From NCBI GenBank assembly GCA_043803015.1, contig JAZDKK010000051.1, positions 17,213 to 81,212 on the forward strand: a stretch of 64,000 nt of DNA, read 5' to 3'. The notes beneath the pieces are model-generated. The model was given only the letters and a program-made list of their open reading frames with translations, did no database searches and had not been told where the DNA came from. Shown here piece by piece: positions 4,604 to 19,962 of this stretch. Position numbers and translations under genes: made by a program. Origin of the DNA: Verrucomicrobiota bacterium. Its GTDB lineage: Bacteria > Verrucomicrobiota > Kiritimatiellia > CAIQIC01 > JAGNIJ01. How positions within the stretch are numbered: position 1 is the first letter of the stretch; each line of letters opens with the position of its first letter.

Positions 4604-4634
4604 CGCGGGCACGGGGCGCGGAAAGGAGAACGCC

Positions 4635-4955
4635 ATGAAAGCCGACGAGAACAGGGCCGGGAAGAACCGGGAGCTCATCGAGGAGATGGGCTGCTGTCCA
4701 ACAGGCCACTACTGCACGCTGAAGGAGATCCTCATTCGGTGTCCAAGAGACACGCGAACCCTCGTGCTCATCAAGTGCCTCGAGAAGTTCAAGTACGAGC
4801 GAAGCGAACGCGAGCAGCGGGCACTCGACTGGAACAGCGCTCTCGACCTCTGGATCGCCGAAGGTCGCGCGGACATCTTCGCCCGCCTGTTCCGGGAAGA
4901 CGTGCGGGTCGAGGAGCTGTACCGGGCCGTGATGAGCGAGCCGGCACAGCGCTGA
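4635..4955 (+). CDS. small conserved hypothetical protein (K-Y/W-E-x-SE...DW...A..DW motif family)
   Basis: ATG at 4635 with AAAGGAG 6 nt upstream. The motif KFKYERSEREQRALDWNSALDLWI is paralogous to the small ORF at 24929-25150 (HKWYESEKAGHDIGWERACVDWMI). Confidence 0.6.
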   Translation: MKADENRAGKNRELIEEMGCCPTGHYCTLKEILIRCPRDTRTLVLIKCLEKFKYERSEREQRALDWNSALDLWIAEGRADIFARLFREDVRVEELYRAVMSEPAQR

Positions 4956-4969
4956 AGGGCAGGGGACTC

Positions 4970-5440
4970 ATGAAGAAGCCACGAAGCAGAAATCGGCCCC
5001 CCTTTGTGGGGACGCGTGAGCGCACGATCAAGCCGGGCGGATGGCTTGTCATCCCGGCTGAGTACCGGGCGCTCCTGCAAGGGAGGCGGGGTGTGATCCG
5101 GGTGCTCGTGGTGAAAGGCAAGCCGGCGAACCTGTCGTGCTATCGCTTTGAGGATTGGGCTCTCGCCAGACGGGAGCTGATGGCGCTCGGCGGGGACGTG
5201 AGGCGCGGGCGAGAAGCTGCCTTGGGATCATCGCCTCTCATCACCGCGTGTGCTCTTGATTCTCAAGGGCGCATCCGTCTTCCGGACGGTTTCCGGCAGC
5301 ACGCGGACCTCGATCACCGCGTCGTCATCGTCGGCTGTTTCGACTCGTTCGAGCTGTGGCGTCCCCATCGATGGAAGCGGCACACGGCAACCACGCAGGG
5401 GCCGCGTTGCAGGGCGGAATCGTATCTCTGGGGCGGGTGA
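4970..5440 (+). CDS. mraZ: MraZ-like transcriptional regulator (two SpoVT/AbrB-like halves)
   Basis: The second half, LDSQGRIRLPDGFRQHADLDHRVVIVGCFDSFELWRPHRW, aligns by eye to the MraZ DxxGR...VGxxxxFELW half-repeat. The first half is degenerate (IKPGGWLVIPAEYRALL). No rsmH/mraW follows. Confidence 0.65.
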   Translation: MKKPRSRNRPPFVGTRERTIKPGGWLVIPAEYRALLQGRRGVIRVLVVKGKPANLSCYRFEDWALARRELMALGGDVRRGREAALGSSPLITACALDSQGRIRLPDGFRQHADLDHRVVIVGCFDSFELWRPHRWKRHTATTQGPRCRAESYLWGG

Positions 5441-5456
5441 ACCGGAGCGCGTGGAC

Positions 5457-6041
5457 ATGACTCTTTCCGGGATGCCGAAACCGGGGGGCCACGGAGGCTG
5501 GTTGGTCATGGGCGAGAAGAAGACGATACGGCGGAAGTGGCCGGCGCCGGGCAGCTTCTTCCAGGCCCGGCAGTTGAACCGGAACTTCTACTGCAATGGC
5601 TTCGGCTATTGGTCGTATCCCGCCCTCCAGGTCTCCGGGACTGGACGGGTGCAGTGGGTGCATGTCGGGCTGGGTTTCGAGTTCGAGGAGTACAGGACTC
5701 TTCTGTTCCGCCCGCGCGCGGTCGCGGTAACCGATGCGAACAGCACCATCCTCGTGCGATACGAGGACTTCAAGGCGGGGCGGGATCCTTTTCCGCAGGA
5801 GGACTGGACGGAACCGGTATCCGTATATCCTCATCCGGCGATCTGCGAATGGACCGATGAACAACTGCACTCGGAGGAAGGGAAGTTGCTTTCCGTGTAT
5901 CCGAAGGCGGCGAAGGTGTTTGCCGCGACAGGCGAGTTGCCTGACAGGTTCAGGAGCAAGTACCTGACCATCGCCCACCCGATCTTCAGCCGCTACCTGG
6001 CGGTCCTGGCCCCCGCATTTTCAAAAGCTCTTCACAGTTAG
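5457..6041 (+). CDS. hypothetical protein
   Basis: High GC3 frame. Candidate starts are ATG 5457 or ATG 5508 (GGAGG about 10 nt upstream of 5508). No family recognised. Confidence 0.5.
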   Translation: MTLSGMPKPGGHGGWLVMGEKKTIRRKWPAPGSFFQARQLNRNFYCNGFGYWSYPALQVSGTGRVQWVHVGLGFEFEEYRTLLFRPRAVAVTDANSTILVRYEDFKAGRDPFPQEDWTEPVSVYPHPAICEWTDEQLHSEEGKLLSVYPKAAKVFAATGELPDRFRSKYLTIAHPIFSRYLAVLAPAFSKALHS

Positions 6042-6055
6042 CTGGTGAAAAGGAG

Positions 6056-6412
6056 ATGCACATGAACGAGAGACTCGCACGCAAGCTGACGATTCTGAAC
6101 AAGTACGGGATTTATGCGCGGTCATCGGCCCTGCTGGTCAAGACCGCGGCCAAGGCGGGGCCCAACACCGAGGTCACCGTGACCTGCGAAGGCACTACCG
6201 TAAGTTGCAAGAGCATCATGGGCCTGCTGACCATCGAGGGATATCAGGGCCGGGAGCTTCTTGTCGAAGCCCGGGGCCCGGAAGCGAGAGCCGTGCTGGA
6301 AGCGATCACCGAGCTTGTAAACCTGGGATTTCTCTCCGGTGAACCGTGCCTGCCCATTCCGCCGTCGCATTCGGAGTTCGTCGATTTGTCGGCCGAACCG
6401 GAGCAAGCTTGA
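6056..6412 (+). CDS. HPr-like phosphocarrier-fold protein with Tyr in place of the active-site His15
   Basis: Aligns to HPr. GIYARSSALLVKTAAK corresponds to the canonical GIHARPA, and VSCKSIMGLLTIEG retains the Ser46 KSIMG motif. ATG at 6056 or 6062 follows AAGGAG. The Tyr codon TAT is at 6113-6115. Confidence 0.8.
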   Translation: MHMNERLARKLTILNKYGIYARSSALLVKTAAKAGPNTEVTVTCEGTTVSCKSIMGLLTIEGYQGRELLVEARGPEARAVLEAITELVNLGFLSGEPCLPIPPSHSEFVDLSAEPEQA

Positions 6413-6452
6413 AGCCTCTCGCGCCATCGCCTAGCATCGAGCCGGGGTGAAC

Positions 6453-6557
6453 ATGACCGACCGGCACGGTACACCAGCAACACACGAACGGGTGGTCCGC
6501 GTCTTCATCTCCTCCACGTTCCACTACATGCATGGAAATGATCCTCCTGTGTGCTGA
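6453..6557 (+). pseudogene. orphan 5' stub of a DUF4062-type STAND gene (34 codons)
   Basis: Translates as MTDRHGTPATHERVVRVFISSTFHYMHGNDPPVC, then a stop at 6555-6557. Shares a 22-nt identical core (tccgcgtcttcatctcctccac, 6496-6517) with the heads at 11943-11986 and 16355-16398. Ends 25 nt before the next gene. Confidence 0.5.
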
Positions 6558-6582
6558 ATGAAAGATCATATGGAGTAGCACC

Positions 6583-9500
6583 ATGAGCAAACTCGAGAAC
6601 CGCCGCATCCGCATCTTCATTTCGTCACCGGGCGACGTCGCCGAGGAACGCGACCGTGCCCGTCAGGTGGTTGAGGAACTGCGACACCGTTATGCAGGAC
6701 GCTTGGACATCAAGGCGGTGCTCTGGGAGAAGCTGCCCCTGCAGGCCGACATGTCGTTCCAGCAGGGTATCGACCTGGTGCTCTCGCGCGAGCAGGGAAT
6801 CGATGTCGCCGTCTTCATCCTGTGGTCCCGCCTCGGGTCGCCGCTGGGTCCGCGCATCCGGAAACCGGACGGCACGCAGTACCGGTCAGGCACCGAACGC
6901 GAGTTCGACCTGATGCTGGCCGCCAGGAGAGAGAACAGGCAGCGCGACCCGGCCAGCGATTCTCCCAAGATCCTGCTCTACACGCGGAACGACGAGGCCA
7001 GCTTCGATGAACGGCTCCGCGGCCGATCCACGGACGAGAAGGAAGACATGATTGTGCAGAAGAAGCTCGTGGAGACCTTCGTCAAGGAGGAGTTCCGCGA
7101 TGCCACGACCGGCACGAATATCCGGGCCTATCATGTCTTCGGGCAGCCGGTGACCTTCTCGCAGAACCTGAGGGCCCACCTGGAGGAGATCCTGAACCCG
7201 ATGGTCGAGGGTTCCCAGGGAAGCCCGGCCTGGGATGTTACCCGGCTGGGTGCGCCGTTCCGGGGGTTGGAGGTCTTTCAGTTCGAGCACAGCCCGATCT
7301 TCTTCGGCCGCGAGGACGAGGTCCTCGAAGTGCGCCGGGCGCTGCAGCGGAAGGCGAGGGAAGGATGCGCCTTCGTATTGATCACGGGCGCGAGCGGCAG
7401 CGGCAAGTCATCGCTGGCGCGCGCGGGAGCGCTTCCGGCCGTGGTCTGGAACGAGGTGGACGACACGGTGGTCGGCTGGCGATACGCGATCTACACGCCG
7501 GGCCAACTGCAGGGCGATTTGTGCGGGGGCCTGGCCCGGCTTCTGTGCTCGGACGCGGTTCTGCCGGAACTGCGGATCAGCGACGACACCGCCACGGTGC
7601 TGGCCGAGGGCCTCGCGGCCGCGCCCAAGCTGACGGTCGACCAGAGCCTGCGCCCGGCTCTTCAGCGGGCGGCCCAGGGGAAGCACGGCTCCGTGCGCCT
7701 GATGCTGCTGGTCGACCAGCTGGAGGAACTGTTCACCGACAAGCGGCTGACGGACGCCCACCGGGAGCAATTCGTCAATGCGCTCGAAGCGATGGCCCGA
7801 AGCGGCGTGGTCTGGGTTCTCGCCACGGTGCGCAGCGATTTCTACCCATACTGCCAGCGGTTGCCTGCGCTGATGCGGGCGAAGGAAGGGCCGGGCCAGA
7901 TTGACATCCTCCCGCCCGCCGCCGATGCGCTGCGCCGCCTGATTGAGTGCCCCGCCGGGCTGGCCGGTCTCGTCTTCGAGAAGAGAGGCGAGACGTCCCT
8001 TGCGGACCGCATTCTGGATGACGCGACCGCGCATGCCGGGCTTCTGCCGCTGGTGTCCTACGTGTTGCGAGAGCTGTTCGAAAGACGCACGCCGGAGGGC
8101 GTGCTCACGTTCGCGGCGTACGACCAGCTGGGCGGTGTGGAGGGGGCGCTTGCCAAGCGGGTCGAGGCGGTGTTCTCCAGCCTGCCACCCGCTGCGCAGG
8201 CCCAGCTGCCTTCCGTCCTCCGGGGGCTGGTGAGCGTGAGCGGAGACGAAGAGGAGAGCGTGGTCAGGCAGCGCATGCCGATGGACGCGCTTTCGCTCGA
8301 CGGTCCCGCCCGTGTCCTCGTGGACAGGTTCATCCAGGAGCGATTCCTGGTCACGGACAGGACCACGAGCGGGACCCCCATGGCTTCTCTGGCACACGAG
8401 GCCCTGCTCGCTGTCTGGCCCCGCGCCGCCGCATGGACTACCGACAACCGTGACTTCCTGCGGGTCCGGGCTCGAGTCGCCGCCCGCATGAAGGAGGGAA
8501 GCCGCCTTCAGGAGGGGGACGCCCTGCTTGAGTCGGCAAAGCAACACCTGGCGACGGCCGGCGACGGCTTCACGGCGGAGCAGGTCTCTTTCATCCGGGA
8601 GTGCGCACGTGCGGTGGAGCGCGCCCGGCACAGGCGGGAACGCATCGTCATGTCCGTGGCGGCGGCATTTGCTGCTCTCTCCCTCCTTGCGGCGGGGGCC
8701 GGCTGGCTGGCTTGGCAGAAGAGGCAGGAGGCCGCGGCCGAAGCGCGGGCGCGTGCGCAACTGCTCCAGGACGCGGGCCGCAGCGAGCACGCTACGGCCG
8801 AAGGCATGTTTCGCGAGGGAAGTTGGGAAGGCGGTGTCATTCACCTCGGTCGCGCTCTCACCTACGACCCGCTCAACACGACCGCGGCAGCGCATATGTG
8901 GAGCGCGATCGTGCATTGCGCGAACAGGATACCCCCTCCGCTGGTCGGGCGGATCGACTACACTCAGGAACCCGACCGTCAAACGAAAGACCGCGACGAA
9001 AATGCGCGCGATGCGGCAACGATCCAGCACATGGCGCGGCGCGTCATAGGAGAGAACATCCGGGCCTGCCTGTTGCCGGCGGCTCTCATGCTTTTCCCTG
9101 CGGGGTCCTGGCGCGTGGGCGAGCAGGTTGCTGGCAGATGGGCCCGAAGCCGATACGAACAACGCGCAGACATCGGCGTTCATCCGAGGGACGCGAGCCC
9201 GAACGAGCCGGAGTCGCAGGCAAGTCCAACACCGGCAGGCACACAAATCCTGTCCAGGAACATGGTTGGTTACGTAGGGGATCGGTTCTTCGTGTGGGAA
9301 GGGATACCCCACTTCGCCCTGTCCCGCGATGGAACACGTGTCGTCCTCTGTCACTTTGAGCAGGGGTCTGCACAGGTCTTTGCCCTGCCGTCGGGTCAGC
9401 CCGTGGGCGAACGGGTGTTCTTGGGCGATGGGGCATCTTTCCAGGGGAGGGTCGTGCGAGTCGCTGTGTCTCCATCAGGCACGAGCTTCGCTGCCGGTGC

Positions 9501-11304
9501 CTTTGGGAAGGTCGGGGTGTGGAGCGAGTCTTCCGGGCTCCTTTGCTTGACCAACGCGACCGGCGACACCGCCTTGGAGTTCAGTCCGGACGGGCGTTTG
9601 CTTCTCATGGGCGGAAGCGCAGGCGCGAGCATCTACGATGTCGCGGGGGGTAAGGGGATTGAACCGCTCGCCGGACACACGAGCAGAACGGTGGGGGGAT
9701 TCCGGCCGGACGGCAAGGCCATCTTGACGGCCGATCAGGATGGCAATGTGATCCTTCGTCCCATCGATCGTTCGTCGCCCTTCTCCTCCCAGAAATGCGA
9801 GGACGGGATCCTCGATCTTGCCCTGTCCGCTGACGGGAAGTGGTTTGCCACCGAACACCAAGGAGGCAAGGTTCAGGTGTGGGACTTCGAGACCGGCGCC
9901 CCCGTTGGAGCGCCATGCCTGCATCCCCAAGCCGTCTCGGCGGCTGCGTTCTCGCCGGACAGCAGACTGCTTGCCACGGCATGCTATGACGGCAGCGTTC
10001 GCCTCTGGGCCATCGGATCCACGTCTCAACCCCATCTCGTTGATTGCGGTTCTCCAGTTCAGGCGCTTGCATTCAATGAGGATGGCTCGGTGCTGGCGGC
10101 CGCGTGTGGGAAGTTGGGTGGTCGCTGGGGTGAACCGTCTCCCCGGGTGTACGTCGGGCTGTGGCACATCGGCATGGGAGCGGATGCCGCGCCCTACGGC
10201 GCCCTGTCCTGCGACGGATCTATGCTCTCCTTCTGCGGCTCCGGAAGCTTGCTCGCGACAGCAGGGCACGATGGTGTCTTCAGGCTCTGGGACTACAGCG
10301 AGGGATTGCGCGGCATGGACCTGGTTGGAAGGGGCGGCGAAGTGCCGCATCTCTTCCCCGCCTTGGAAGGGCTCTACGAGATTCAGGTACACGAGGCGGG
10401 ACCGAATCTCCCGGATGACGGTGTCTGGTGGATGGCAGAGCATACGGGATGGGTGACCTCGTCTGAGGTGTCGAGCCAGACGGGTCTTCTCGCGCGGAGG
10501 GGCAGAACGCGCGGCGACACGGAAGTCATGAGCAGAATGCTCACCTTCCGCTGCTGGCCGTCTGGGTCTGGCTTTGCATGCACGGAGGTGCTGGAGCACC
10601 AGATCCCGTTTCCTGATGGGGAGAGCGGCAACGTGGGGCGGGGGCCGTCGGTCATCCAGTGGGACGCCGGCAGGGACGCTGTCCTGACCACGGACGCGGA
10701 TGGCGTCACGCGAAGATGGCGAATCTTCTTGCCGCAAGAACCGGCACCCACTTGGGTCAATACACTTGCGGAATATGCTACGGGATGGAGATCCGACGAA
10801 ACGAACTTGACCTTGCTGTCCATGAGCGACGCGGAGCGCGCCGACAGAGAGGCGACGCTTCGCGGGTTGGCGCAGGGCACAAGCGAATGGAGCCGGCTCG
10901 CGGCCTGGGTCCTGCTGCCTCCCTCGCGGCGCCCGGTGTCGCCACTCGACAGCACAACGCCGGCGCAATGGGCAGACAAGGCGATCGAGGTAAACACCGA
11001 AAACGACATACGTGCAGCCCTCGCGGTGAATCCATCCCACCCGTTGGTGAGGATCGCGCTCTGCGGCTTCATTGACGATCCCGATCAGGCTGCATGGATG
11101 GAAGCTCGTGCATTGAATCTGTTGCCGGACGATCCCTCGGTTTGCATTCGGGCAGCCGAGATCTTCATGCTGCGCAAGGATTGGGCGGGCGCTCAAGCTG
11201 CGGTGGATCTCGCCTTGAAGGTCAAACCTGACCATGTGAAGGCAGAGAAGTTGCGGAGTCTACTTGAAGACATTGCTGATAAGGCCCTCCATCCGGCAAA
11301 GTGA
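6583..11304 (+). CDS. STAND NTPase: DUF4062/TIR-like head, nSTAND-type P-loop NTPase, hydrophobic helix, WD40 repeats, C-terminal TPR
   Basis: The N-terminus has RIRIFISSPGDVAEERDRARQVV...GTEREFDLML. PFRGLEVFQFEHSPIFFGRE precedes Walker A ITGASGSGKSSLARAG (about 7381-7413) and Walker B LMLLVDQLEELF. A hydrophobic helix follows (IVMSVAAAFAALSLLAAGAGWLAW). WD40-like units include FSPDGRLLLMGG, DGKWFATEHQGGKVQVWD, FSPDSRLLATACYDGSVRLWA and LATAGHDGVFRLWD. Confidence 0.9.
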   Translation: MSKLENRRIRIFISSPGDVAEERDRARQVVEELRHRYAGRLDIKAVLWEKLPLQADMSFQQGIDLVLSREQGIDVAVFILWSRLGSPLGPRIRKPDGTQYRSGTEREFDLMLAARRENRQRDPASDSPKILLYTRNDEASFDERLRGRSTDEKEDMIVQKKLVETFVKEEFRDATTGTNIRAYHVFGQPVTFSQNLRAHLEEILNPMVEGSQGSPAWDVTRLGAPFRGLEVFQFEHSPIFFGREDEVLEVRRALQRKAREGCAFVLITGASGSGKSSLARAGALPAVVWNEVDDTVVGWRYAIYTPGQLQGDLCGGLARLLCSDAVLPELRISDDTATVLAEGLAAAPKLTVDQSLRPALQRAAQGKHGSVRLMLLVDQLEELFTDKRLTDAHREQFVNALEAMARSGVVWVLATVRSDFYPYCQRLPALMRAKEGPGQIDILPPAADALRRLIECPAGLAGLVFEKRGETSLADRILDDATAHAGLLPLVSYVLRELFERRTPEGVLTFAAYDQLGGVEGALAKRVEAVFSSLPPAAQAQLPSVLRGLVSVSGDEEESVVRQRMPMDALSLDGPARVLVDRFIQERFLVTDRTTSGTPMASLAHEALLAVWPRAAAWTTDNRDFLRVRARVAARMKEGSRLQEGDALLESAKQHLATAGDGFTAEQVSFIRECARAVERARHRRERIVMSVAAAFAALSLLAAGAGWLAWQKRQEAAAEARARAQLLQDAGRSEHATAEGMFREGSWEGGVIHLGRALTYDPLNTTAAAHMWSAIVHCANRIPPPLVGRIDYTQEPDRQTKDRDENARDAATIQHMARRVIGENIRACLLPAALMLFPAGSWRVGEQVAGRWARSRYEQRADIGVHPRDASPNEPESQASPTPAGTQILSRNMVGYVGDRFFVWEGIPHFALSRDGTRVVLCHFEQGSAQVFALPSGQPVGERVFLGDGASFQGRVVRVAVSPSGTSFAAGAFGKVGVWSESSGLLCLTNATGDTALEFSPDGRLLLMGGSAGASIYDVAGGKGIEPLAGHTSRTVGGFRPDGKAILTADQDGNVILRPIDRSSPFSSQKCEDGILDLALSADGKWFATEHQGGKVQVWDFETGAPVGAPCLHPQAVSAAAFSPDSRLLATACYDGSVRLWAIGSTSQPHLVDCGSPVQALAFNEDGSVLAAACGKLGGRWGEPSPRVYVGLWHIGMGADAAPYGALSCDGSMLSFCGSGSLLATAGHDGVFRLWDYSEGLRGMDLVGRGGEVPHLFPALEGLYEIQVHEAGPNLPDDGVWWMAEHTGWVTSSEVSSQTGLLARRGRTRGDTEVMSRMLTFRCWPSGSGFACTEVLEHQIPFPDGESGNVGRGPSVIQWDAGRDAVLTTDADGVTRRWRIFLPQEPAPTWVNTLAEYATGWRSDETNLTLLSMSDAERADREATLRGLAQGTSEWSRLAAWVLLPPSRRPVSPLDSTTPAQWADKAIEVNTENDIRAALAVNPSHPLVRIALCGFIDDPDQAAWMEARALNLLPDDPSVCIRAAEIFMLRKDWAGAQAAVDLALKVKPDHVKAEKLRSLLEDIADKALHPAK

Positions 11305-11362
11305 AGAGAATCGTTGGAATTCAGGAAATGGAGTGACGCGGTCAGAAGAAGGCTGGTGAAGC

Positions 11363-11788
11363 ATGAAGATTATCAAGATACAGACCTTGGAAAAGGGCTG
11401 GTGCGACAAGGACCACGTGTTGCTTCACGCCGCTTTTCAGCTCCTGGTCGATTATGTCGAGCAGGAGAAACCTCAGAACGTGGATTGGACTTGGAATCGG
11501 GAGCCCAGGCATGCATGGGCTGAAATCAGATCGCTATACCGCTGGTGGAAGAAGACGCGTCCAAAGCGAAAAGATCCGCTGATGAGGAGGGGTCTGAAGC
11601 GCCCACCCTGGCGACTCAAGAAGATCCCTGGAAGCGAGCTCCTACAACGTGTGGACTACGACAAGAAGAAGTACGCCGCGTATGAAGCGGCATCGAAGGC
11701 AAGCCTGCGGCTGGACTGGGAGTGGCTCAAGGAGGATCAAAGGAATTTGCACCGACTGATCGAGATCAGGCCGTTCCTTTGGACGTAG
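11363..11788 (+). CDS. hypothetical protein (141 aa), visibly lower G+C than its neighbours
   Basis: ATG at 11363. Translation begins MKIIKIQTLEKGWCDKDHVLLHAAFQLLVDYVEQEKP, is basic and W-rich, and ends in FLWT. No family recognised with confidence. Confidence 0.55.
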   Translation: MKIIKIQTLEKGWCDKDHVLLHAAFQLLVDYVEQEKPQNVDWTWNREPRHAWAEIRSLYRWWKKTRPKRKDPLMRRGLKRPPWRLKKIPGSELLQRVDYDKKKYAAYEAASKASLRLDWEWLKEDQRNLHRLIEIRPFLWT

Positions 11789-11882
11789 AAATGCCGGACC
11801 CGGCCATCCAGCGGACCGGGTTCCCAAGGCACGCAACTGCGTGCGCACCTGGCGCGTTGCGGCCAGATGAGGAGCACGGCGC

Positions 11883-14800
11883 ATGAGCAAAGGAGACGAC
11901 CGGCGTTTCTCCGGCGGGACCAAACCCGCCGCGTCTCCCGATCGCGTCATCCGCGTCTTCATCTCCTCCACCTTCCGCGACATGCAGGAGGAGCGGGATT
12001 ACCTAGTGAAGTTCGTTTTTCCGGAATTGCGGAAGATGTGCGAGTCGCGCGGGGTGACGTGGGGCGAGGTGGATTTGCGCTGGGGGGTGACCACGGAGCA
12101 GGCGGCAGAGGGCAAGGTCTTGCCGATCTGTCTGGAGGAAATCAAACGCTGCCGGCCGTACTTCATTGGTCTCTTGGGCGAACGCTACGGCTGGATTCCC
12201 GATGCCATCCCGCAGGGAATCATCGACAGCGAGCCGTGGCTCAAGGAGCACGTCCACGACAAGAAGTCGGTTACCGAGCTGGAGATCCTGCATGGCGTGC
12301 TCCGCAATCCAGACATGGCGAGCCATGCGTTGTTCTACTTCCGCGATCCGGCCTACGTGAAGTCCGTGCCGGAGGAGAAGAAGGCAGACTTCACCACGGA
12401 AGACACGGAGAGCGCGGAGAGGCTCAAGGCGTTGAAGGAGAAGATACGCGCGAGCGGCTTTCCGGTGCGGGAGAATTATCCCGACCCCAAGGCGCTGGGC
12501 GAATTGGTGAAGCAGGACCTCATCGAGGTCGTTGATCAGCTGTACCCGCCGGGTGAAGAACTCGATCCGCTCGATCGAGAGGCGATGGAGCACGAGGCGT
12601 ATGCCGAGAGCCGGGCCAAGGTCTACATCGGCCGGCAGGCGTATTTCGACCGGCTCGACGCCCATGCCGGCAGCGCGGGCGATCAGCCGTTGGTCGTTCT
12701 CGGCGATTCGGGTTCGGGTAAATCAGCCCTGCTGGCAAACTGGGTGATCCGCTACCGGCAGGCGCATCCTGACGTCTTGGTGCTGCAGCACTTCATTGGC
12801 GCCTCGCCCTGCAGCGCCGACTGGGCGGCGATGCTGCGTCGGATCATGGGCGAGTTCAACCGGAAGCTCGGCATTCAGCAGGACATTCCCGACAGCCCGG
12901 ATTCGCTGCGCAGCGCCTTCCCCAACTGGCTCCACATGGCCGCGGCCAAAGGTCGCGTCGTGCTCGTGCTGGACGCGTTGAACCAGTTGGAGGATCGCGA
13001 TGGTGCGCGGGATCTCTTGTGGCTGCCTCCGGTCATGCCGGAGAACGTGCGGTTGATCGTCTCGACGTTGCCCGGCCGGCCGTTGGATGTGATCGGGGAC
13101 CGCGGTTGGCCCACCTATCTGGTCGAACCACTGAAGCCGGATGAACGCCAAGAACTCATCAAAGAGTACCTCGCGCAACACGCGAAGACCCTCGATCCCG
13201 TGCTCGTCGAGCGCATTGCCGCCGCGCCGCAGTCGGCCAATCCTCTTTACCTGCGCGTTCTGCTCGATGAGCTGCGCCTGTTTGGCGTCTTTGAACAGCT
13301 GGAGGAACGCATCGGCCATTACCTGAAAGCCGCAGACTCCTATGAACTCTACGAGAAGGTGGTCGCCCGGTGGGTGAACGACTACAGCGGCGATGCCCAC
13401 TTGGTCGGTGATACGCTCTCGCTGATTTGGGCTGCGCGCCGCGGCCTGTCCGAATCCGAGTTGCTTGGCGCTCTGGGCAGTAAAGACCAACCGCTGCCGC
13501 GCGCCCAATGGTCACCACTTTTCTTGGCCATGGGTGACGGTCTCGTCAGCCGAGGCGGGTTGCTGACCTTTGCCCACGATTTCCTGCGGACGGCGGTCCG
13601 CGACGCCTGCCTGCCCACTGAAGAGCAACAGCATCAGGCCCACAGCCGCCTCGCCGACTACTTCGAGCGTCAGCCAGGCCCTCGCCGGACCGATGAACTG
13701 CCTTGGCAATTGGCGGAGGCCAAGGCGTGGAGGCGCCTGCAGGCATTGTTAACCGTCCCGGGTTTCTTCTTGGCGGCATGGCATAGCAGCGAATTCGATG
13801 TCAAGACCTACTGGACTCGGATTGAGGCCGATTCACCGTTGCGCATGCTGGATGCGTATCTTGTGCAGACCGAGCATCCCCAGGGAGAATGGGACAAGGA
13901 CTTTCTGGACAGGTTGGCCAAGCTTCTTGCAGGCACCGGCCATTCCGGGGAGGCGATGAAGATATGGTCACACCTGATCGAGCTTAGCCGGGCCACTGGC
14001 GACATGAATAACCTCCAGGCGGGGCTCATCAATCAAGCAGAGATTCTGAAGGAGCACGGTGACTTGGAAGGATCCATGGCGCTGTCCAAGGAAGGGGAAC
14101 GGATTTGCCGCCAATTGGGCAATCTGAAGGACTTGTCAGCGAACCTCTGCAACCAAGCCTTGATCCTGCTGGCGCAGGGGGACTTGGACGCCGCCATAGC
14201 GTTGCTCAAGGAAGGGGAGCAGATTAGCCGCCAGTTAGGCCATGCGGGTATCCTCTCAGCGATTCTTGGTAACGAAGCGCTGATTCTCCATGATCGCGGG
14301 GACTTGGGTGGCGCGATGATGCTGTTCAAGGAACAGGAGCGGACTTGCCGCCAGTTGGGCAATCTGAGCAGCCTTTCATCGTGCCTCGGCAACCAAGCGT
14401 TGATTCTCCATGCTCGCGGGGATCTAGGTGGCGCGATGGCGCTGTATAAGGAACAGGAGCGGATTTGCCGCCAGTTAGGCGATCTGGACGGCCTCTCACA
14501 CACCATCGGCAACCAAGCGTTGATGCTGAGGGATCGCGGAGATCTGGACGTTGCACTGGCGTTGTTCAAAGAACAAGAGCGGATCTGCCGCCAGTTAGGC
14601 TATCTTGACGGCCTTTCACGGGCCCTGACTAACCGATCTGCGATCTTGCAGGATCGCGGCAATTTAGATGGTGCGATGGCCCTCATCAAGGAAGCGGAGC
14701 AGATATGCAGGCAGTTGAACAACCCGGCCGTTCTGGAAGTGATCCTCGGCCGCCAGGCAAACATCTTGTACGTGCGTGGAGACTTGGACGGGGCGATGGC

Positions 14801-16175
14801 CCTGTACAAGGAAGAGGAGCGGATTTGCCGCCAGTTGGGTTCCCCAAATGGACTGCAACGCACTCTCAGCAACCAAGCGTTGATCTTGGCGGACCGCGGG
14901 GACCTTGATGGCGCGATGGCGTTGCATGAGGAACAAGAGCAGATCTGTCGGAAGTTGGGCAATCTGGCCGACCTCTCAATTGCTCTCGTCAACCGGGCTG
15001 CGATCTTACAGGGTCGCGGGGATCTGGACGGTGCGATGGCGCTATACAAGGAAGGGGAAGGAATTTGCCGCCAGTTGGACAACTCGGCCTTCCTACGACC
15101 GATCCTCAGCGGTCAGGCGGACATCTTGCACGCGCGTGGAGACTTGGACGGAGCCATGGCACTGCTCAAGGAAGGGGAACGGATTTGCCGCCAGTTGGGC
15201 AATCCGGGCCCTCTAGCTGAGGTCCTTGGCAGACAGGCGTCAATTTTGAACCTGCGCGGGGATCCCCTAGGCGCAATGGCGCTATACAAGGAAGGGGAAC
15301 GGATTTGTCGGCAGATGGGCGATTTGGCCGCCCTGGCAACGACGCTCGGAAAACTGGCGTGGATATCGGCGGATCGCGGGGATCTGGACGGGGCGATGGC
15401 CCTGCACAAGGAAGAGGAGCGGATTTGCCGCCACCTGGGGAACCAAAAAGATCTGGCCGTATCGCTTTCCGGTCAGTCCAGGATCTTGCATGCGCGTGGA
15501 GATACGGAAGGTGCGGTGGCACTCCTTAGGGAAGGGGAGCGGATCTTTCGCCAGCTGGGTGATCTGGCCGCCCTCGCAACAACCCTCGGCAACGAATCCG
15601 TGATCCTAGCGGAACGTAGGGACCTGGACGGAGCCATGGCGTTGCTCAAGGAAGGGGAGCAGATTTACCGCCAGTTGGGCAATCCCCACGGCCTCGCGGC
15701 GATCCTAGGCAAACAGGCGAATGTGCTGCACATGCGTGGAGACTTGGACGGTGCGCTGGCGCTTTACAGGGAGGAAGAACATATCTGCGGGATGTTGGGC
15801 AACAGGGGCGGATTAGCCACGTCGCTTTTCAATCAAGCACTGCTTCTGTCCCGACGTCGATGCAACCGACGGGAGGCAGAAGCCAAGTGCGCTAAAGCAC
15901 GCGAGATATATACTGCGCTAGGAATGAGTGTGAACTGCTCGCGTGTTCAGGCTCTCCAGTTGCAGATGCGCTGGGGAGGTGTGCTGAAATGGCTGCCCAT
16001 TGGCTTGGGAGCTTTGGGGATCACGCTGGGCTTGTGGAATCCCTGGGTGTGGATCATCGGAGGACCTCTTGTTCTTGTGTGTGGCTTCTCGATTGCCTTC
16101 CGATTGTCGCCCCGTATTCGGTCAGTCTGTCAATCCCACGTTGGACAATGGATCGCTGACTCAAGAAAGCCGTAA
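11883..16175 (+). CDS. STAND NTPase: DUF4062 head, NACHT-like P-loop NTPase, about 16 tandem TPR-like repeats, two C-terminal TM helices
   Basis: The head reads VIRVFISSTFRDMQEERDYLV...FIGLLGERYGWIP...SVTELEILHG. Walker A is VVLGDSGSGKSALLANW (about 12694-12735) and Walker B is VVLVLDALNQLED. A 40-aa unit of the type LGNQALILxxRGDLDGAMALYKEGERICRQLGN is repeated about 16 times. The C-terminus has LKWLPIGLGALGITLGLW and WIIGGPLVLVCGFSIAF. Confidence 0.9.
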   Translation: MSKGDDRRFSGGTKPAASPDRVIRVFISSTFRDMQEERDYLVKFVFPELRKMCESRGVTWGEVDLRWGVTTEQAAEGKVLPICLEEIKRCRPYFIGLLGERYGWIPDAIPQGIIDSEPWLKEHVHDKKSVTELEILHGVLRNPDMASHALFYFRDPAYVKSVPEEKKADFTTEDTESAERLKALKEKIRASGFPVRENYPDPKALGELVKQDLIEVVDQLYPPGEELDPLDREAMEHEAYAESRAKVYIGRQAYFDRLDAHAGSAGDQPLVVLGDSGSGKSALLANWVIRYRQAHPDVLVLQHFIGASPCSADWAAMLRRIMGEFNRKLGIQQDIPDSPDSLRSAFPNWLHMAAAKGRVVLVLDALNQLEDRDGARDLLWLPPVMPENVRLIVSTLPGRPLDVIGDRGWPTYLVEPLKPDERQELIKEYLAQHAKTLDPVLVERIAAAPQSANPLYLRVLLDELRLFGVFEQLEERIGHYLKAADSYELYEKVVARWVNDYSGDAHLVGDTLSLIWAARRGLSESELLGALGSKDQPLPRAQWSPLFLAMGDGLVSRGGLLTFAHDFLRTAVRDACLPTEEQQHQAHSRLADYFERQPGPRRTDELPWQLAEAKAWRRLQALLTVPGFFLAAWHSSEFDVKTYWTRIEADSPLRMLDAYLVQTEHPQGEWDKDFLDRLAKLLAGTGHSGEAMKIWSHLIELSRATGDMNNLQAGLINQAEILKEHGDLEGSMALSKEGERICRQLGNLKDLSANLCNQALILLAQGDLDAAIALLKEGEQISRQLGHAGILSAILGNEALILHDRGDLGGAMMLFKEQERTCRQLGNLSSLSSCLGNQALILHARGDLGGAMALYKEQERICRQLGDLDGLSHTIGNQALMLRDRGDLDVALALFKEQERICRQLGYLDGLSRALTNRSAILQDRGNLDGAMALIKEAEQICRQLNNPAVLEVILGRQANILYVRGDLDGAMALYKEEERICRQLGSPNGLQRTLSNQALILADRGDLDGAMALHEEQEQICRKLGNLADLSIALVNRAAILQGRGDLDGAMALYKEGEGICRQLDNSAFLRPILSGQADILHARGDLDGAMALLKEGERICRQLGNPGPLAEVLGRQASILNLRGDPLGAMALYKEGERICRQMGDLAALATTLGKLAWISADRGDLDGAMALHKEEERICRHLGNQKDLAVSLSGQSRILHARGDTEGAVALLREGERIFRQLGDLAALATTLGNESVILAERRDLDGAMALLKEGEQIYRQLGNPHGLAAILGKQANVLHMRGDLDGALALYREEEHICGMLGNRGGLATSLFNQALLLSRRRCNRREAEAKCAKAREIYTALGMSVNCSRVQALQLQMRWGGVLKWLPIGLGALGITLGLWNPWVWIIGGPLVLVCGFSIAFRLSPRIRSVCQSHVGQWIADSRKP
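14014..15870 (+). repeat. tandem 120-bp coding repeats (about 15-16 units) encoding the TPR array of the 11883-16175 gene
   Basis: Strings such as ggagcggatttgccgccagttgggcaat recur every 120 nt (for example near 14097, 14337, 14457, 14817, 15177, 15297). The repeats are in frame with the gene. Confidence 0.85.
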
Positions 16176-16315
16176 GATTCCGCGGGTCGAGGGAAGGAGG
16201 CGAGTGCCAGCTTGCTCTCAGCCGGCTATGCGGCCCCGGAGAAACGAGCCGATCCTGAATAGAGTGCGCATTGCGGTGCAAGGAAAGTAAACTAGGAAGA
16301 GAGACTTCTCAGATC

Positions 16316-16516
16316 GTGAACGATTCAGGCACACCCGCGGCCACCGCCCCCAACCGCGTCATCCGCGTCTTCATCTCCTCCACCTTCCGCGACATGCACG
16401 CGGAGCGGGATCATCTGGTCACCGTCGTCTTCCCGGAGTTGCGGGAGCGGGTCGAGCAGTTGGGGCCGGAGTTCTTCGACGCGGCGATGGACAAGCTGGC
16501 CGGGTTCTTGAAATAA
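16316..16516 (+). pseudogene. orphan 5' stub of a DUF4062-type STAND gene (no ATG start; GTG 16316 or TTG 16271)
   Basis: Encodes ...NRVIRVFISSTFRDMHAERDHLVTVVFPELRERVEQLG, then diverges and ends in TAATAG. It carries a 44-nt run (16355-16398) identical to 11943-11986. It covers only the first half of the DUF4062 region seen in the full-length gene. Confidence 0.5.
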
Positions 16517-16534
16517 TAGGCGAGGGGAGGGGCC

Positions 16535-16954
16535 ATGCCGACGAAACCATTCCGTCTGGCCGTGAAGGCGGTGATCCTGGACGAGCAGGGGCGGTGCCTG
16601 CTCATCCGGCGGTCCGCGCACAACCGCAACTTTGTCGGCCGGTGGCAGTGGCCTGGAGGGAAGGTGGACGCGGGTGAGGATTTCGCCACCGCGCTGACAC
16701 GCGAGGTGATGGAAGAGACCAACCTGCAGGTCGAGATCACGGGCCTGGCCGGAGCCACCCATTTCGAAATGCCCGCCGTTCACGTGATCCTGCTTTGCCT
16801 GGAGGCGCGTCTCGCCGGGGGCGAGCTCAAGCTGAGCGAGGAACACGACGAAGCCGGCTGGACCCCGCTGGCGGAACTTCGCCGCCTCGAACTCGCCGAC
16901 CAGGTGCGCCCCTTCATGCTCGATTACGTAGCCAGAAAAGGAGCCCAAACATGA
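16535..16954 (+). CDS. NUDIX hydrolase (139 aa)
   Basis: ATG at 16535 behind GGGGAGGGG. Nudix box GGKVDAGEDFATALTREVMEETNL matches GX5EX7REUXEEXGU with the last G replaced by N. The stop at 16952-16954 overlaps the next ATG. Confidence 0.85.
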   Translation: MPTKPFRLAVKAVILDEQGRCLLIRRSAHNRNFVGRWQWPGGKVDAGEDFATALTREVMEETNLQVEITGLAGATHFEMPAVHVILLCLEARLAGGELKLSEEHDEAGWTPLAELRRLELADQVRPFMLDYVARKGAQT

Positions 16955-19581
16955 GCCCTGCCGCTCCCAACCATGCCCTGACCGATCCCCGCGTGGCAGC
17001 AAAACTCAGTGACGAGGACTGGGCGGCCCTGCACGTGCGGCGCTTCCAGAAGGTCCGCCCGCGTTACGTCGCCTACGAGGACGTTCTGAAACAGATCCTC
17101 AAGCAAGCATGCGGCAACCTCGCGCCGCTCGCCATGGTTGAGGCGCGCCCCAAGGCTTTGACCAGCTTTGCCGAGAAGATCCTGCGCAAGCGCAAGCTCT
17201 ACGTAGACCCCAAGGACCCGCTTCCGCCGGATCCGCTGGTCCGCATCACGGACCTCTGCGGTGGCCGTATAATCACCCAGACGTCGGACCAGGTGAATGC
17301 AGTATGTCGGTTCATCGAGCGGGCGTTCGACATCGACTGGCCCAACAGCGAAGACGTCAGCCAGCGCCTGCGTCCCACAGAGTTCGGCTATCGGTCGGTT
17401 CACTACATCGTGCTCGTCAATCCAAAGAAGCTTCAGGCCGCCGGTATCACGGCCACGATTCCCAAGAACGTCCTCGGCCTCAAGGCCGAGATCCAGGTCC
17501 GCACGTTGCTCGAACATGCCTGGGCCGACATCGGCCATGACATGACGTACAAGACCGAAATGAAAGTGCCGGATCGCATCAAGCGCGAGGCCGCGGCGCT
17601 CGCCGCCGTGCTGGAGGACGTCGACCGCGAATTCGGCCGGCTGGTGCGTGGTCTCGATGTGTTCAAATCCAACTTTGGCGCCTACCACACGCGAGACGAG
17701 GTGGAAAGGGAGATCAACAGGCTCCGCATCGTGCTGTCCCGCGATTCGGAGAATGTGGCCCTGGCTGTGAAGATCGCCCAGCTTGCGCTTTCTCTCGGCC
17801 AACACGAGACCGCCCTCAAGATCCTCAAGCCCTACGCGACCAGGCCGCATCAGGGCGTGCAACGGGTCACAGGCGTTGCGCTGACGGACATGCATTGGGA
17901 TCATCCCCGAAGCAAGGAGTTCATCCAGGGCCGGCGGTCTCTTGAAGCCGCCTGCTCCCATCCCGAGAAAGACGCCGAAACGCTCTGTGCCCTGGCCGAG
18001 AGCTGGGCGCGGGAAGATGAATCCAAGGCCCGAGACCTGTTCCATAAAGCGGTTGCCGTAGATGCCACCGAACCGGTGACGCTCAGCCGGCACATCGAGT
18101 TCGAAGTCGCCCACACGACCAGCAATGCGGTGGTCCGGATCGTCGCACCGATGATCCGCAACTCCATGGATCGTTGCCGCAAGGAGATCGGGGCGCGCGT
18201 CAACCTTCCGTACGCATGGGCCAGCCTCGCCGTATTTCATCTCCTCGTCGGGGAGCCCTTCGACGCCCTCAAGGCTATCGCCCAGGTCATCCGGCTCTGC
18301 GACCCGCCCGAAGGCGCAGCGGCCAGCGTGGCCGGCGGCTGCGGCCAACGCGGCCGTCCATGTGCCGCCGGCCGTGCGCTCCTGCGTATGCGCGAGACCC
18401 TGAATCGCATTCGCTGCATCAGCGAGAAGCTCTGCGGCTTCGACTGGTGCGAACGCGCCGTCCTGCTGGGCGTGGCGGCGCGCGAGCGAGACCCTGAGGC
18501 GCTCGCTGCTCTGCGCGAGGCGGCCTGCTGGAAGAAGGACAAGCCGCATGTCTCGGCAACCGACAGCATCGTCGTGCTGGCCGGCGGGTGTGTGCCGGAG
18601 GTACAAGACGCAATCGATGCGTTCAAACCCCATCTGCTCGATGCCTGCAAGGGCCTGTCGTTCACCCTCTTCTGCGGCGGCACCGGTCGCGGCATCAGCG
18701 GTGTGGCCGGTGACATGGCCGAGCAGTCTGGCGGGGCCATTCGGGCCTTCGGCTACATGCCGAAGACGCTACCCCTGAGGATCCATGAGGACACCAATCG
18801 GGCCCGTTTCGCCGATCACTTCTCCAGCCCAGGGAACGATTTCACGCCGTCGGATCCGCTGCAGGGCTGGACCGATATCATTGTGGCCGGAGTGGACCCG
18901 CACCGGGTGAAGCTGTTGTGCTACGCCGGGAAGGACATCGCGTCCTGCGAATGCGCGATGGCCCTGGCTCTGGGAGCTCGGGTCGGTGTGGTGGAAGACC
19001 CGTCTTTGCCCAGGGAACGTCAGTTCAAGGACCCGGACTGGCAGGATCATCCCAACCTGGCCCGTCTCCCGAAGGACACCATGACCTTGCGCGCCTTCCT
19101 GCTGGTGGACGAACTTCCCTGCAAGCGGAAGAAGTTCGAGCACGCCGCGCAGAAGACCCACGAGGAGTACGTCAAGTCGGCCATCCCGAAAGACCCCTCC
19201 CTGCAGAGTTGGGAGGACCTTGCCGAAGACCTCAAGATCTCCAACTTCCACCAGGTGGCCTACGCCGAAAACATCCTCAAGACGGCCGGCTTGGGCATCC
19301 GCGAAATGACCGATCCGAAGAAGAAGCTCCTCGACGTGGAGAAGGCTCTGGGCAGAAAGCGCATCCGGCGCATGGCCGAGATGGAGCACGGCCGCTGGAA
19401 CGTCGAACGTCTCCTGCTGGGTTGGCGCTACGCCGACGAAAAGGATGTGGTCAAGAAGCTGTCCCCGTACCTGGTGCCATGGGACAAACTGCCTGCGAAG
19501 ATCCAGAAGTACGACCTCGACGCCATGCGCGCCCTGCCGAAGACATTCAGGGCGGCAGGGTTGGAGGTGTACAGGCTGTGA
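16951..19581 (+). CDS. RelA/SpoT-homologue (synthetase-only) fused to helical repeats, a LOG/SLOG-like Rossmann domain and tandem RyR-like repeats (876 aa)
   Basis: ATG at 16951 with AAAAGGAG at 16936-16943. Synthetase motifs EARPKALTSFAEKILRK, ITDLCGGRII, GYRSVHYIV, EIQVRTLLEHAWADIGHDMTYK. No HD hydrolase, TGS or ACT region. SLOG/LOG-like FCGGTGRGISGVAGDMA ... YAGKDIASCECAMALALGARVGVV. RyR-like SWEDLAEDLKISNFHQVAYAENILKTAGLGI and EMEHGRWNVERLLLGWRYA...LVPWDKLPAKIQKYDLDAMRALP. Confidence 0.85.
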   Translation: MSPAAPNHALTDPRVAAKLSDEDWAALHVRRFQKVRPRYVAYEDVLKQILKQACGNLAPLAMVEARPKALTSFAEKILRKRKLYVDPKDPLPPDPLVRITDLCGGRIITQTSDQVNAVCRFIERAFDIDWPNSEDVSQRLRPTEFGYRSVHYIVLVNPKKLQAAGITATIPKNVLGLKAEIQVRTLLEHAWADIGHDMTYKTEMKVPDRIKREAAALAAVLEDVDREFGRLVRGLDVFKSNFGAYHTRDEVEREINRLRIVLSRDSENVALAVKIAQLALSLGQHETALKILKPYATRPHQGVQRVTGVALTDMHWDHPRSKEFIQGRRSLEAACSHPEKDAETLCALAESWAREDESKARDLFHKAVAVDATEPVTLSRHIEFEVAHTTSNAVVRIVAPMIRNSMDRCRKEIGARVNLPYAWASLAVFHLLVGEPFDALKAIAQVIRLCDPPEGAAASVAGGCGQRGRPCAAGRALLRMRETLNRIRCISEKLCGFDWCERAVLLGVAARERDPEALAALREAACWKKDKPHVSATDSIVVLAGGCVPEVQDAIDAFKPHLLDACKGLSFTLFCGGTGRGISGVAGDMAEQSGGAIRAFGYMPKTLPLRIHEDTNRARFADHFSSPGNDFTPSDPLQGWTDIIVAGVDPHRVKLLCYAGKDIASCECAMALALGARVGVVEDPSLPRERQFKDPDWQDHPNLARLPKDTMTLRAFLLVDELPCKRKKFEHAAQKTHEEYVKSAIPKDPSLQSWEDLAEDLKISNFHQVAYAENILKTAGLGIREMTDPKKKLLDVEKALGRKRIRRMAEMEHGRWNVERLLLGWRYADEKDVVKKLSPYLVPWDKLPAKIQKYDLDAMRALPKTFRAAGLEVYRL

Positions 19582-19689
19582 CCCGAGTGCCGACGGCGCG
19601 GTAGGGATTTCAGATCTGAGACGGCAGATTTCAGATTGAAGAGTCGGCCCGGCGGCGCTAGTTTCTCCTCCGTCTCACGCTCCGCGGGT

Positions 19690-19766
19690 GTCCCGGTAGC
19701 TCAGTTGGACAGAGCGCTGGATTCCTAATCCGGAGGTCGCGGGTTCAAGTCCCGCCCGGGATACCA
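19690..19766 (+). tRNA. tRNA-Arg (anticodon CCT) with encoded CCA
   Basis: Hand-folded cloverleaf: GTCCCGG TA GCTC AGTTGGACA GAGC G CTGGA TTCCTAA TCCGG AGGTC GCGGG TTCAAGT CCCGC CCGGGAT A CCA. Position 1:72 is a G-U pair. Confidence 0.9.
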
Positions 19767-19887
19767 GTCTTCGCTGCGCAGCGCGGCGGAGCAGCGAAGA
19801 CTGCCTCGGCGTAGTGGCGCGCAGCGCGCCACGAAGCCGGGCCCTTACGCGTCGCGCCTCGAACTTCGCCCGGGCAAGCCATCTTCC
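19714..19887 (+). repeat. direct repeat copy A: 3' two-thirds of tRNA-Arg plus a ~120-nt structured trailer
   Basis: Near-identical to 24183-24365 apart from a few substitutions and an 8-nt insertion in copy B. The trailer starts with the hairpin GTCTTCGCTGC-13 nt-GCAGCGAAGAC and contains GTGGCGCG-CAG-CGCGCCAC. Confidence 0.85.
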
Positions 19888-19962
19888 CTTCCAGGATGTG
19901 GCCCTCAGATTCAGCTTGAAACGATGTGGGGCTGGCGCGAACATCCGTCCGGAGGGAAGGGC

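Follow-up and report, generated by a model that had tools for sequence, protein, structure and literature searches.

Orphan DUF4062 heads in a Verrucomicrobiota defense cluster as probable remnants of lost STAND genes

What does it mean when the head of a STAND gene stands alone, closed by stop codons, directly in front of another gene? The question is raised twice by a 64,000-nucleotide (nt) stretch of a Verrucomicrobiota genome (contig JAZDKK010000051.1 of assembly GCA_043803015.1; hereafter the window, meaning the whole stretch, to which all coordinates refer). It contains three DUF4062 heads, of which only one, copy 2, continues into a complete gene, and two, stubs 1 and 3, do not. An initial annotation of this DNA had located the three heads, and all of its coordinates check out; it read the stubs either as scars of displaced STAND paralogues or as the mark of a recombination hotspot formed by the conserved head and its promoter. 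Our comparisons favor the former. Stubs 1 and 3 are probably the 5' remnants, i.e., deletion scars, of DUF4062-STAND genes in a fast-changing, NLR-like defense cluster, and not a body-swapping device; for stub 3, the scar reading is essentially demonstrated. The features that bear on these heads are the following.

6453-6557, plus strand: stub 1, a probable 34-codon DUF4062 head remnant, recognized from its sequence and without a Pfam match.
11883-16175, plus strand: copy 2, an intact A-type DUF4062 (TIR-like NADase)-NACHT-TPR gene of 1430 amino acids (aa) (Pfam DUF4062 58.7 bits, NACHT, TPR).
11943-11986, plus strand: a 44-nt string encoding RVIRVFISSTFRDM(Q/H), identical to 16355-16398.
16316-16519, plus strand: stub 3, a GTG-started 66-codon open reading frame (ORF, 16316-16516) with a double stop (Pfam DUF4062 fragment; identity to B-type heads).
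16477-16481, plus strand: deletion or replacement junction of stub 3 (blastn against contig L091, four-way alignment).
16488-16517, plus strand: sigma-70-like promoter match inside the nonhomologous tail of stub 3 (promoter-motif scan).

Stub 3 has no ATG, as was first reported; an in-frame GTG at 16316 opens its ORF, and two stop codons, TAA TAG at 16514-16519, close it 18 nt short of the ATG of a NUDIX hydrolase gene at 16535. The very same ORF appears in the NCBI annotation of a metagenome-assembled genome (MAG) labelled Verrucomicrobiota, as a DUF4062 protein (P0001). The ORF is a composite: its first ~53 codons are a B-type DUF4062 head and its last ~13 codons are DNA that belongs upstream of the NUDIX gene, with the breakpoint at about codon 38 after the RVF motif.

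The heads were compared with those obtained by a back-translated search of metagenome contigs, which provided 80 loci with heads (numbered with the prefix L); protein look-ups added more, for about 100 heads in all. In this set, stub 3 reads DMHAERDHLVTVVFPELRERVEQLG(L)EFFD, the sequence of B-type heads, which intact B-type genes continue with VDLRWGVPAKDANGETANSWEYCRQWIDRVEPFF and then extend to 1370 to 1650 aa from the head, encoding an NTPase and WD40 repeats. Across a 113-nt alignment, the intact B-type gene of L008 matches stub 3 with 95% identity and the close B-type heads of L012, L016, L092, and L002 with 91 to 93%; identity falls to 79 to 86% for more distant B-type heads (L015, L014, L023, and L039), all of these being on unrelated contigs, and to 73% for copy 2. 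Copy 2 has the A-type sequence DMQ.ER..LVK.VFPELR..CE.R.VT..EVDLRWG.T.EQAAEGKVLPICLEEI in common with an intact gene in a Phycisphaerae MAG (L001). The claim that one head is present three times is contradicted by this comparison: judged by their sequences, copy 2 is A-type, stub 3 belongs to another subfamily, and stub 1 looks non-A. In a separate comparison of the close B-type heads (L008, L012, L016, L092, and L002) with window positions 16355-16476, the identity of 91 to 96% extends to synonymous sites, which fits a recent horizontal spread of the B-type lineage.

The point at which stub 3 departs from the B-type heads can be mapped against a contig that has the neighboring gene and no stub. 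This contig, L091 (3.2 kb), carries a close relative of the NUDIX gene (88% nt identity), and its alignment with the window by blastn (L091 positions 436-882) covers 16481-16928 only, starting 54 nt ahead of the NUDIX ATG and ending shortly before the stop codon of that gene. In the four-way alignment, the window tracks the B-type heads through ...GAGTTCTTCGAC(G) and from GCGGCGATGGACAAG onward tracks the upstream region of the L091 NUDIX gene. Since homology to L091 starts at 16481, the tail AAMDKLAGFLK and the "double stop" of stub 3 are native NUDIX upstream DNA that happens to be read in the frame of the stub. Upstream of the junction point, L091 has no head, and it instead contains the 3' end of an ORF that resembles the C-terminal part of the DUF4062-STAND-WD40 protein of L004 (tblastx, 58% over 59 aa). 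The promoter match inside the tail (TGGACA and AATAAT spaced by 18 nt, with a TG) is the sole plus-strand sigma-70-like match in 5900-19950; TGGACA is conserved in L091, and the double stop of stub 3 starts inside the -10-like box.

The body that once followed this head is absent from the window. A blastx comparison of the whole window with 27 full-length family members recovered the two intact STAND genes and stub 3 only, with no other fragments of STAND bodies. In other contigs, an intact STAND gene precedes the NUDIX and RelA/SpoT-homologue (RSH)/RyR genes (L092-L094, L001, and apparently also L091), and DUF4062 heads come directly after RSH-RyR or RyR genes in several (L001, L012, L064, and L069). 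Given the gene order in L092-L094, L001, L012, L064, and L069, a STAND gene beside NUDIX-RSH is the normal neighborhood, and of that gene the window retains only the first ~53 codons. The lost genes would have been members of the widely shared B-type DUF4062-NTPase-WD40 lineage, not that of copy 2, with the NTPase and repeat bodies gone. At stub 3, the loss would have fused the head, cut at about codon 53, to DNA that begins 54 nt before the NUDIX ATG, and ~4 to 5 kb would have gone if the gene was of the size of intact B-type genes. The event may have been a simple deletion; alternatively, the present NUDIX allele may have arrived by recombination, with the junction as the illegitimate end of that exchange. 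The RSH genes of the window and L091 are only 31% identical in protein and the DNA upstream of the shared segment is unrelated; with the NUDIX segment at 88% nt identity, a stretch of ~450 bp was exchanged recently as a unit. One signal of blastx, a seemingly in-frame continuity of stub 3 with the NUDIX gene in high-scoring segment pairs (HSPs) reaching 16597, is spurious, having low identity and two stops in between.

Stub 1 offers less sequence to work with. Its ATG (6453) lies only 40 nt past the stop codon of an HPr-like gene, its 34 codons read MTDRHGTPATHERVVRVFISSTFHYMHGNDPPVC, and its stop codon (6555-6557) precedes by 25 nt the ATG (6583) of an intact WD40-containing STAND gene. It carries the RVVRVFISSTFHYMH motif, in which the otherwise invariant RD is replaced by HY (two substitutions), suggesting an older, more mutated remnant. 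A His after the Met (YMH), as in non-A types, and an N-terminal leader resembling those of stub 3 and of the L004 stub make it look like a non-A head, one too short for firm assignment. The breakpoint falls at about codon 13 to 22, and no promoter match is present upstream in the sigma-70-like scan of 5900-19950. By these signs, stub 1 would be an older remnant of the same kind as stub 3, placed directly before an unrelated intact STAND gene. With no STAND body fragments elsewhere in the window, the stub 3 junction mapped against a stub-less contig, and the RD-to-HY change in stub 1, the proposal that the stubs are scars of displaced or lost STAND paralogues is supported.

Neither stub could act as an enzyme. 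DUF4062 is described in one recent report (10.64898/2026.05.01.722283), and also in a second (10.64898/2026.06.25.731849), as a TIR-like NADase with a catalytic Glu that is found in defense islands and in human TEP1, and the family is reported to be spread by horizontal transfer; the catalytic Glu is E97 in KpSwz according to the former (10.64898/2026.05.01.722283). Residues 21-196 of copy 2 align to the solved DUF4062 domain of human TEP1 (chain 11gz_A, E 2.8e-34), an alignment that includes the FISSTFRDM(H/Q) and SVTE(L/M)E segments. SVTELEI of copy 2 aligns to SVTEMEV of TEP1 and is likely the site of the catalytic Glu. The complete fold has five strands and five helices in ~180 residues. 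The stubs have 34 and 66 residues, of which ~22 and ~50 are homologous, and contain the first strand and helix only; being this short and missing the region of the catalytic Glu, they can neither form the domain nor be enzymes. The Pfam model PF13271 (cutoff 24.7 bits) agrees: copy 2 passes with 58.7 bits, stub 3 reaches 25.7 bits over profile positions 1-23 of 82 only and counts as a fragment, and stub 1 has no match. As an observation in its own right, human TEP1 (11gz_A) and window positions 11943-12470 have IR.FISSTFRDMH and IDLRWGVTEEE in common nearly letter for letter, a conservation unusually deep for a defense-type domain.

Similar stubs recur in other contigs. Their frequency was taken from the metagenome loci, and not from a protein homologue search, which yielded only query-like lengths; breakpoints were read by hand, and automated blastx calling was dropped, its HSPs having run through stops and given spurious ends. 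A premature stop is present in roughly half of the ~70 heads with enough downstream DNA. In eight loci (L013, L017, L034, L044, L052, L054, L064, and L068) a frameshift or nonsense change has left the body in place, and in L003 the gene is split by an insertion sequence (IS). True head-only stubs number ~20 in ~0.65 Mb around other heads. Their breakpoints range from codon 13 to beyond codon 120 after the RVF, with some crowding at codons 38 to 47, and 20 junctions that were compared have no common motif. Substitutions of invariant residues occur in 4 of 23 stubs versus 1 of 39 intact genes (P = 0.06).

The genes that follow these stubs are varied. Five loci have stubs directly before intact STAND genes with TIR-like heads of their own (L004, L026, L009, L050, and L005, the last fused in frame). 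Others have them before NUDIX and then RSH-RyR (L039), before TPR-HATPase and then RSH-RyR (L005), and before His_Phos_1 (L005 and L092), AbiEi/AbiEii (L085), toxin-antitoxin pairs (L002), TIR_2 genes (L011 and L041), or an AAA_14 ATPase (L025). The variation in junctions across genomes that was predicted at the outset is therefore found descriptively, in that stubs of this gene family stand before many different genes. From stub stop to the next co-oriented start, the distance is 25 and 18 nt in the window, -4 nt in L004, and 3 nt in L092. First stops are ~4.5 times denser in the first 150 codons (0.19 per 100 codons) than in codons 300 to 900 (0.04), with 4 of the 23 early stop events coming from loci found by a search biased to short proteins.

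Three arrangements within these contigs can be recorded separately. The 12-kb contig L005 contains three head stubs (1827-7150): that at 1827 runs in frame and without a stop into an intact TIR_2-NACHT-TPR gene, that at 6001 precedes His_Phos_1, and that at 7027 precedes TPR-HATPase and RSH-RyR-SLOG genes. A stand-alone RyR ORF (94 to 113 aa) followed within 15 to 43 nt by a B-type head stub of 57 to 78 aa occurs in two unrelated elements (L085-L090, at 5644-6174 in L085; L092-L094, at 11294-11858 in L092), of which one is present in 36 contig blocks; the two together resemble what would survive at the junction of an RSH-RyR/STAND gene pair cut on both sides. The stub at 6025-6300 of L041 has DLRWGVPAKDANGE replaced by 17 unrelated codons, including two stops, after which homology resumes in the same frame with TANSWEYCRQWIDRVESFFVCILGQ, a local and heavy change and no simple truncation.

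Some observations count against deletion scars as the whole explanation. No headless NTPase body with its upstream DNA occurs in the ~0.65 Mb around heads, versus the ~20 stubs, which random decay does not predict; because the loci were chosen by their heads, this asymmetry rests mainly on the 4 of ~20 stubs that are "secondary" (i.e., not the reason that the locus was fetched) as opposed to 0 secondary headless bodies. Nor does random decay predict tight junctions, and the next co-oriented start is mostly 45 to 110 nt past the break. At stub 3, deletion and the arrival of a cassette are not separable, and the recent exchange of the NUDIX segment fits an "incoming cassette" equally well. The origin of stub 1 rests on analogy: a search with the WD40 STAND gene at 6583-11304, made to map the junction of the stub, gave best matches of at most 63% identity and hence no close relative of this locus. 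Finally, the 44-nt identity between copy 2 and stub 3 is uncommon: it is longer than the runs in 99.7% of 4,729 inter-contig pairs, among which runs of at least 44 nt make up 0.3% (0.1% with equally diverged flanks) and runs of at least 22 nt make up 9%. The head/body asymmetry is the only surprising part of the feature, which is otherwise a pair of remnants of a known defense-gene family whose head-only leftovers are common in other bacteria.

We infer deletion as the mechanism from the junctions and missing bodies, and a reason why heads persist can be proposed as an addition to it. As translated leader ORFs, the scars might sustain expression of the genes downstream: an early stop would create polarity from the untranslated body, and deletions reaching to the next gene would then be favored while the head is spared. 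This addition is possible but doubtful. The excess of stubs over headless bodies, the density of early stops, the start codons that the stubs retain, and the short distances from stub stops and breaks to the next co-oriented start are all as it would have them. Yet the NUDIX gene has its own promoter-like element, with TGGACA conserved in L091, where no stub is present; stub 1 follows the HPr-like gene by 40 nt and has no promoter match; heads elsewhere often begin 3 to 45 nt past the upstream gene and therefore have no promoter of their own; and the asymmetry itself is drawn from loci picked by heads. A broader version, in which orphan DUF4062-STAND heads are a regular end-state in one-directional defense arrays, the translated head being kept as a leader for downstream expression and the untranslated body purged, such that the head, often of the horizontally spreading B type, would come to stand before many cassettes across phyla, is one we consider rather improbable.

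Other functions for the stubs were considered and set aside. A regulatory leader peptide or structured 5' leader is not suggested by the sequences, in which stub peptides carry substitutions at invariant residues, tails are unrelated, and the RNA fold of 16300-16560 has no unusual stability (z-score of 0.01 versus shuffles). An anti-Shine-Dalgarno (CTCCTCC) hairpin was rejected on similar grounds, as Ser codons vary freely over 76 heads and the fold is no better than that of shuffles. An EAD-like adaptor, in which the same small head would serve both a STAND gene and effectors, was rejected because stops intervene between the stubs and the next genes and because the stubs are fragments of an enzyme domain.

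The 44-nt identity had been taken as a sign of recent gene conversion or recombination between copy 2 and stub 3. The identity itself is exact (11943-11986 = 16355-16398), as is the 22-nt core that stub 1 shares with the other two copies; the run sits within a 117-nt repeat of 80% identity, and the 20-mer core occurs 3 times in the window versus 0.01 expected from shuffles. Codon bias alone was tried as its cause and is insufficient, the chance of two identical encodings of the 14 residues under local codon usage being P ~3e-6, and to that extent the original argument from synonymous sites holds. A short conversion tract of at least 44 nt between the two copies would also account for a run that is rare among inter-contig pairs, between copies 4.4 kb apart in the same orientation whose alignment is only 64% identical over its remainder. 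Nevertheless, a search of 185,579 representative genomes finds the exact 44-mer in a single further species, within an intact 1071-aa gene (L001) where the flanks are 52 to 58% identical to the window copies, and runs of equal length link stub 3 to unrelated contigs: 43 to 44 nt with non-B heads in L001, L042, and L075 (43 nt in L042 and L075), and 49 to 54 nt with B-type heads in L012, L016, and L092 (53 to 54 nt in L012 and L092). Codons vary over 76 nonidentical FISSTFRDM heads (Ser as TCC, AGC, TCG, etc.), and the window string has the commonest codon at each position and is the commonest 27-mer overall, present in 7 of the 76; its 35-mer core is exact in several other contigs. Conversion between copy 2 and stub 3 is thus unlikely. 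The 44-nt identity would instead come from the family's use of its commonest codons for FISSTFRDM, a deeply conserved motif that human TEP1 has as well, and does not show a recent exchange between the two copies.

The second proposal of the initial annotation, in which the conserved head serves as a hotspot or landing pad for recombination and different bodies and cassettes are swapped behind one expression signal, is very unlikely, even though it would readily place B-type stubs before NUDIX-RSH, TIR-STAND, His_Phos_1, AbiE, toxin-antitoxin pairs, and an AAA_14 ATPase in different genomes. About 8 of ~25 breaks, read by eye, fall at codons 38 to 47 after the RVF, and the NUDIX cassette was recently exchanged, both of which such a hotspot could produce. 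Against this, the three copies in the window have no upstream or promoter homology, and the NUDIX gene has conserved promoter-like DNA of its own. The spread of breakpoints and the lack of a motif in the 20 junctions do not resemble a fixed site, and no integrase or recombinase is present among the ORFs scanned in 0-31 kb. Swapping through homologous heads would yield full-length hybrids instead of stubs closed by stop codons, and genes of the family have been disrupted in several ways (IS insertion, frameshift, nonsense, and deletion). That the stubs are chimeras of MAG assembly formed at shared k-mers is extremely unlikely, for although the window appears MAG-derived (P0001 and P0229 are NCBI MAG proteins on an 87.8-kb contig) and B-type heads of different organisms have long exact strings in common, a k-mer jump would lead from one head into another and produce a chimera of full length rather than a stub, the junctions lie outside shared strings (no shared 21-mer spans that of stub 3), and comparable stubs occur both in a 1.8-Mb contig, which its name (ctg..., 9x) suggests to be a long-read assembly, and in one element recovered in the assemblies of several samples.

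The heads and stubs of the window can be set beside several known systems. The head of copy 2 is a bona fide DUF4062 domain (58.7 bits), like those of the TIR-like NADase defense proteins Swarozyc and Evangelion and the N-terminal domain of TEP1; unlike Swarozyc and Evangelion, which are single-gene proteins with other auxiliary regions, the heads here are fused to NACHT/nSTAND NTPases with TPR or WD40 repeats. This layout of N-terminal effector, STAND NTPase, and repeat sensor, in arrays of paralogues with many truncated members beside intact ones, is that of Avs/bNACHT-type STAND proteins and of the birth-and-death clusters of eukaryotic NLRs. In plants, the TIR domain of TIR-only and TN genes is complete and such genes can function, whereas the stubs here stop inside their domain, 13 to 50 residues after the RVF. 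With the displaced orphan cassettes of polymorphic toxin (Rhs and contact-dependent inhibition, CDI) loci, to which the stubs had been likened, they have in common a conserved segment repeated in one locus and modular exchange (the NUDIX cassette). The analogy breaks down in that toxin orphans keep the variable toxin tip and an immunity gene behind a short conserved piece, with new tips entering via the conserved part, while the orphan here is the conserved piece alone, ended by stops 18 to 25 nt before genes that have their own start codons, upstream regions, and heads. Site-specific exchange of the shufflon, integron-like, or phase-variable kind is not indicated either, as there is no recombinase domain in the scanned ORFs, no motif in the 20 junctions, and no constancy of breakpoints. 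Ordinary pseudogene remnants, which arise through deletional bias and IS activity, have the same mixed disruption routes, decaying conserved residues, and absent bodies, and differ in that disruption here is unusually frequent (about half of ~70 heads) and has a strong 5' bias.

The heads lie in a one-directional array: from 6056 to 19581, every gene is on the plus strand and gaps are short (ORF map and Pfam). Its other members are as follows.

6056-6412, plus strand: HPr-like gene, left border of the STAND cluster (Pfam PTS-HPr, E 2.8e-17).
6583-11304, plus strand: intact STAND gene of 1573 aa with a weak DUF4062/TIR-like head, an nSTAND1 NTPase, and WD40 repeats (Pfam nSTAND1 5e-86, WD40; PADLOC PDC-S60 at the N terminus).
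11363-11788, plus strand: 141-aa ORF between the two intact STAND genes (from translation), with no match in Pfam or PADLOC.
16535-16954, plus strand: NUDIX hydrolase gene, 139 aa (Pfam NUDIX 7e-24; PADLOC PDC-S07 4e-24; 88% nt identity to L091).
16951-19581, plus strand: RelA/SpoT-homologue with a C-terminal RyR domain, 876 aa, overlapping the NUDIX stop (Pfam RelA_SpoT 1e-16, RyR 3e-10; PADLOC PDC-S33).
19690-19766, plus strand: tRNA-Arg(CCT), right border of the STAND/NUDIX/RSH cluster (ARAGORN).

In both 6583-11304 and 11883-16175, a P-loop NTPase (nSTAND1 and NACHT, respectively) precedes a set of repeats (WD40 and TPR, respectively), the organization of STAND proteins; no homology to such a body follows either stub. 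The head of the 6583-11304 gene, RRIRIFISSPGDV, scores 21.7 bits for DUF4062 in Pfam, which is below the cutoff, and the gene belongs to a subfamily unrelated to that of stub 1. The NUDIX and RSH proteins match candidate defense families of PADLOC (PDC-S07 and PDC-S33). From 6.4 to 19.6 kb, between HPr and tRNA-Arg, the region is best read as an array of NLR-like conflict genes, with two intact STAND genes bearing TIR-like heads, a NUDIX gene, and a RelA/SpoT-RyR gene.

Further features of this part of the window are noted here for their own sake. NUDIX and RelA/SpoT-RyR (or RyR-only) genes repeatedly adjoin DUF4062-STAND genes in PVC-type contigs (L001, L004, L005, L012, L039, L057, L064, L069, and L092), and the set may be a multigene, nucleotide-signaling defense module. 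Within copy 2, positions 14024-15763 comprise 13 tandem units of 120 nt (40-residue TPR repeats) that are mutually 61 to 75% identical. The third-position GC of likely genes is 0.73 to 0.79 in the first 24 kb versus 0.83 to 0.93 (mostly at least 0.85) in 25 to 64 kb, such that the deviating composition covers the whole left part of the window, beyond the STAND cluster alone. The 3' half of tRNA-Arg(CCT) and ~120 nt downstream of it (19690-19888) are repeated 4.5 kb away at 24199-24365 with 96% identity over 167 nt. The two repeats flank an amylase-like gene (19924-23301) and a PEP-CTERM gene (23306-24010), and they look like the att-type duplication of an integrated element, although no integrase was seen.

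The annotation of this locus changes accordingly: two of its "DUF4062 domain-containing proteins" are most plausibly gene remnants, and the 44-nt identity between heads is not evidence for gene conversion. Judging by the heads compared, turnover appears to be very fast among bacterial NLR-like genes that begin with a TIR-like NADase head. If the pattern holds in an unbiased survey, orphan heads would be an easily read sign in the sequence that an immune gene was recently lost and a warning for counts of DUF4062 defense genes that are based on domains, and they would offer a testable idea of how operon polarity shapes the decay of genes.

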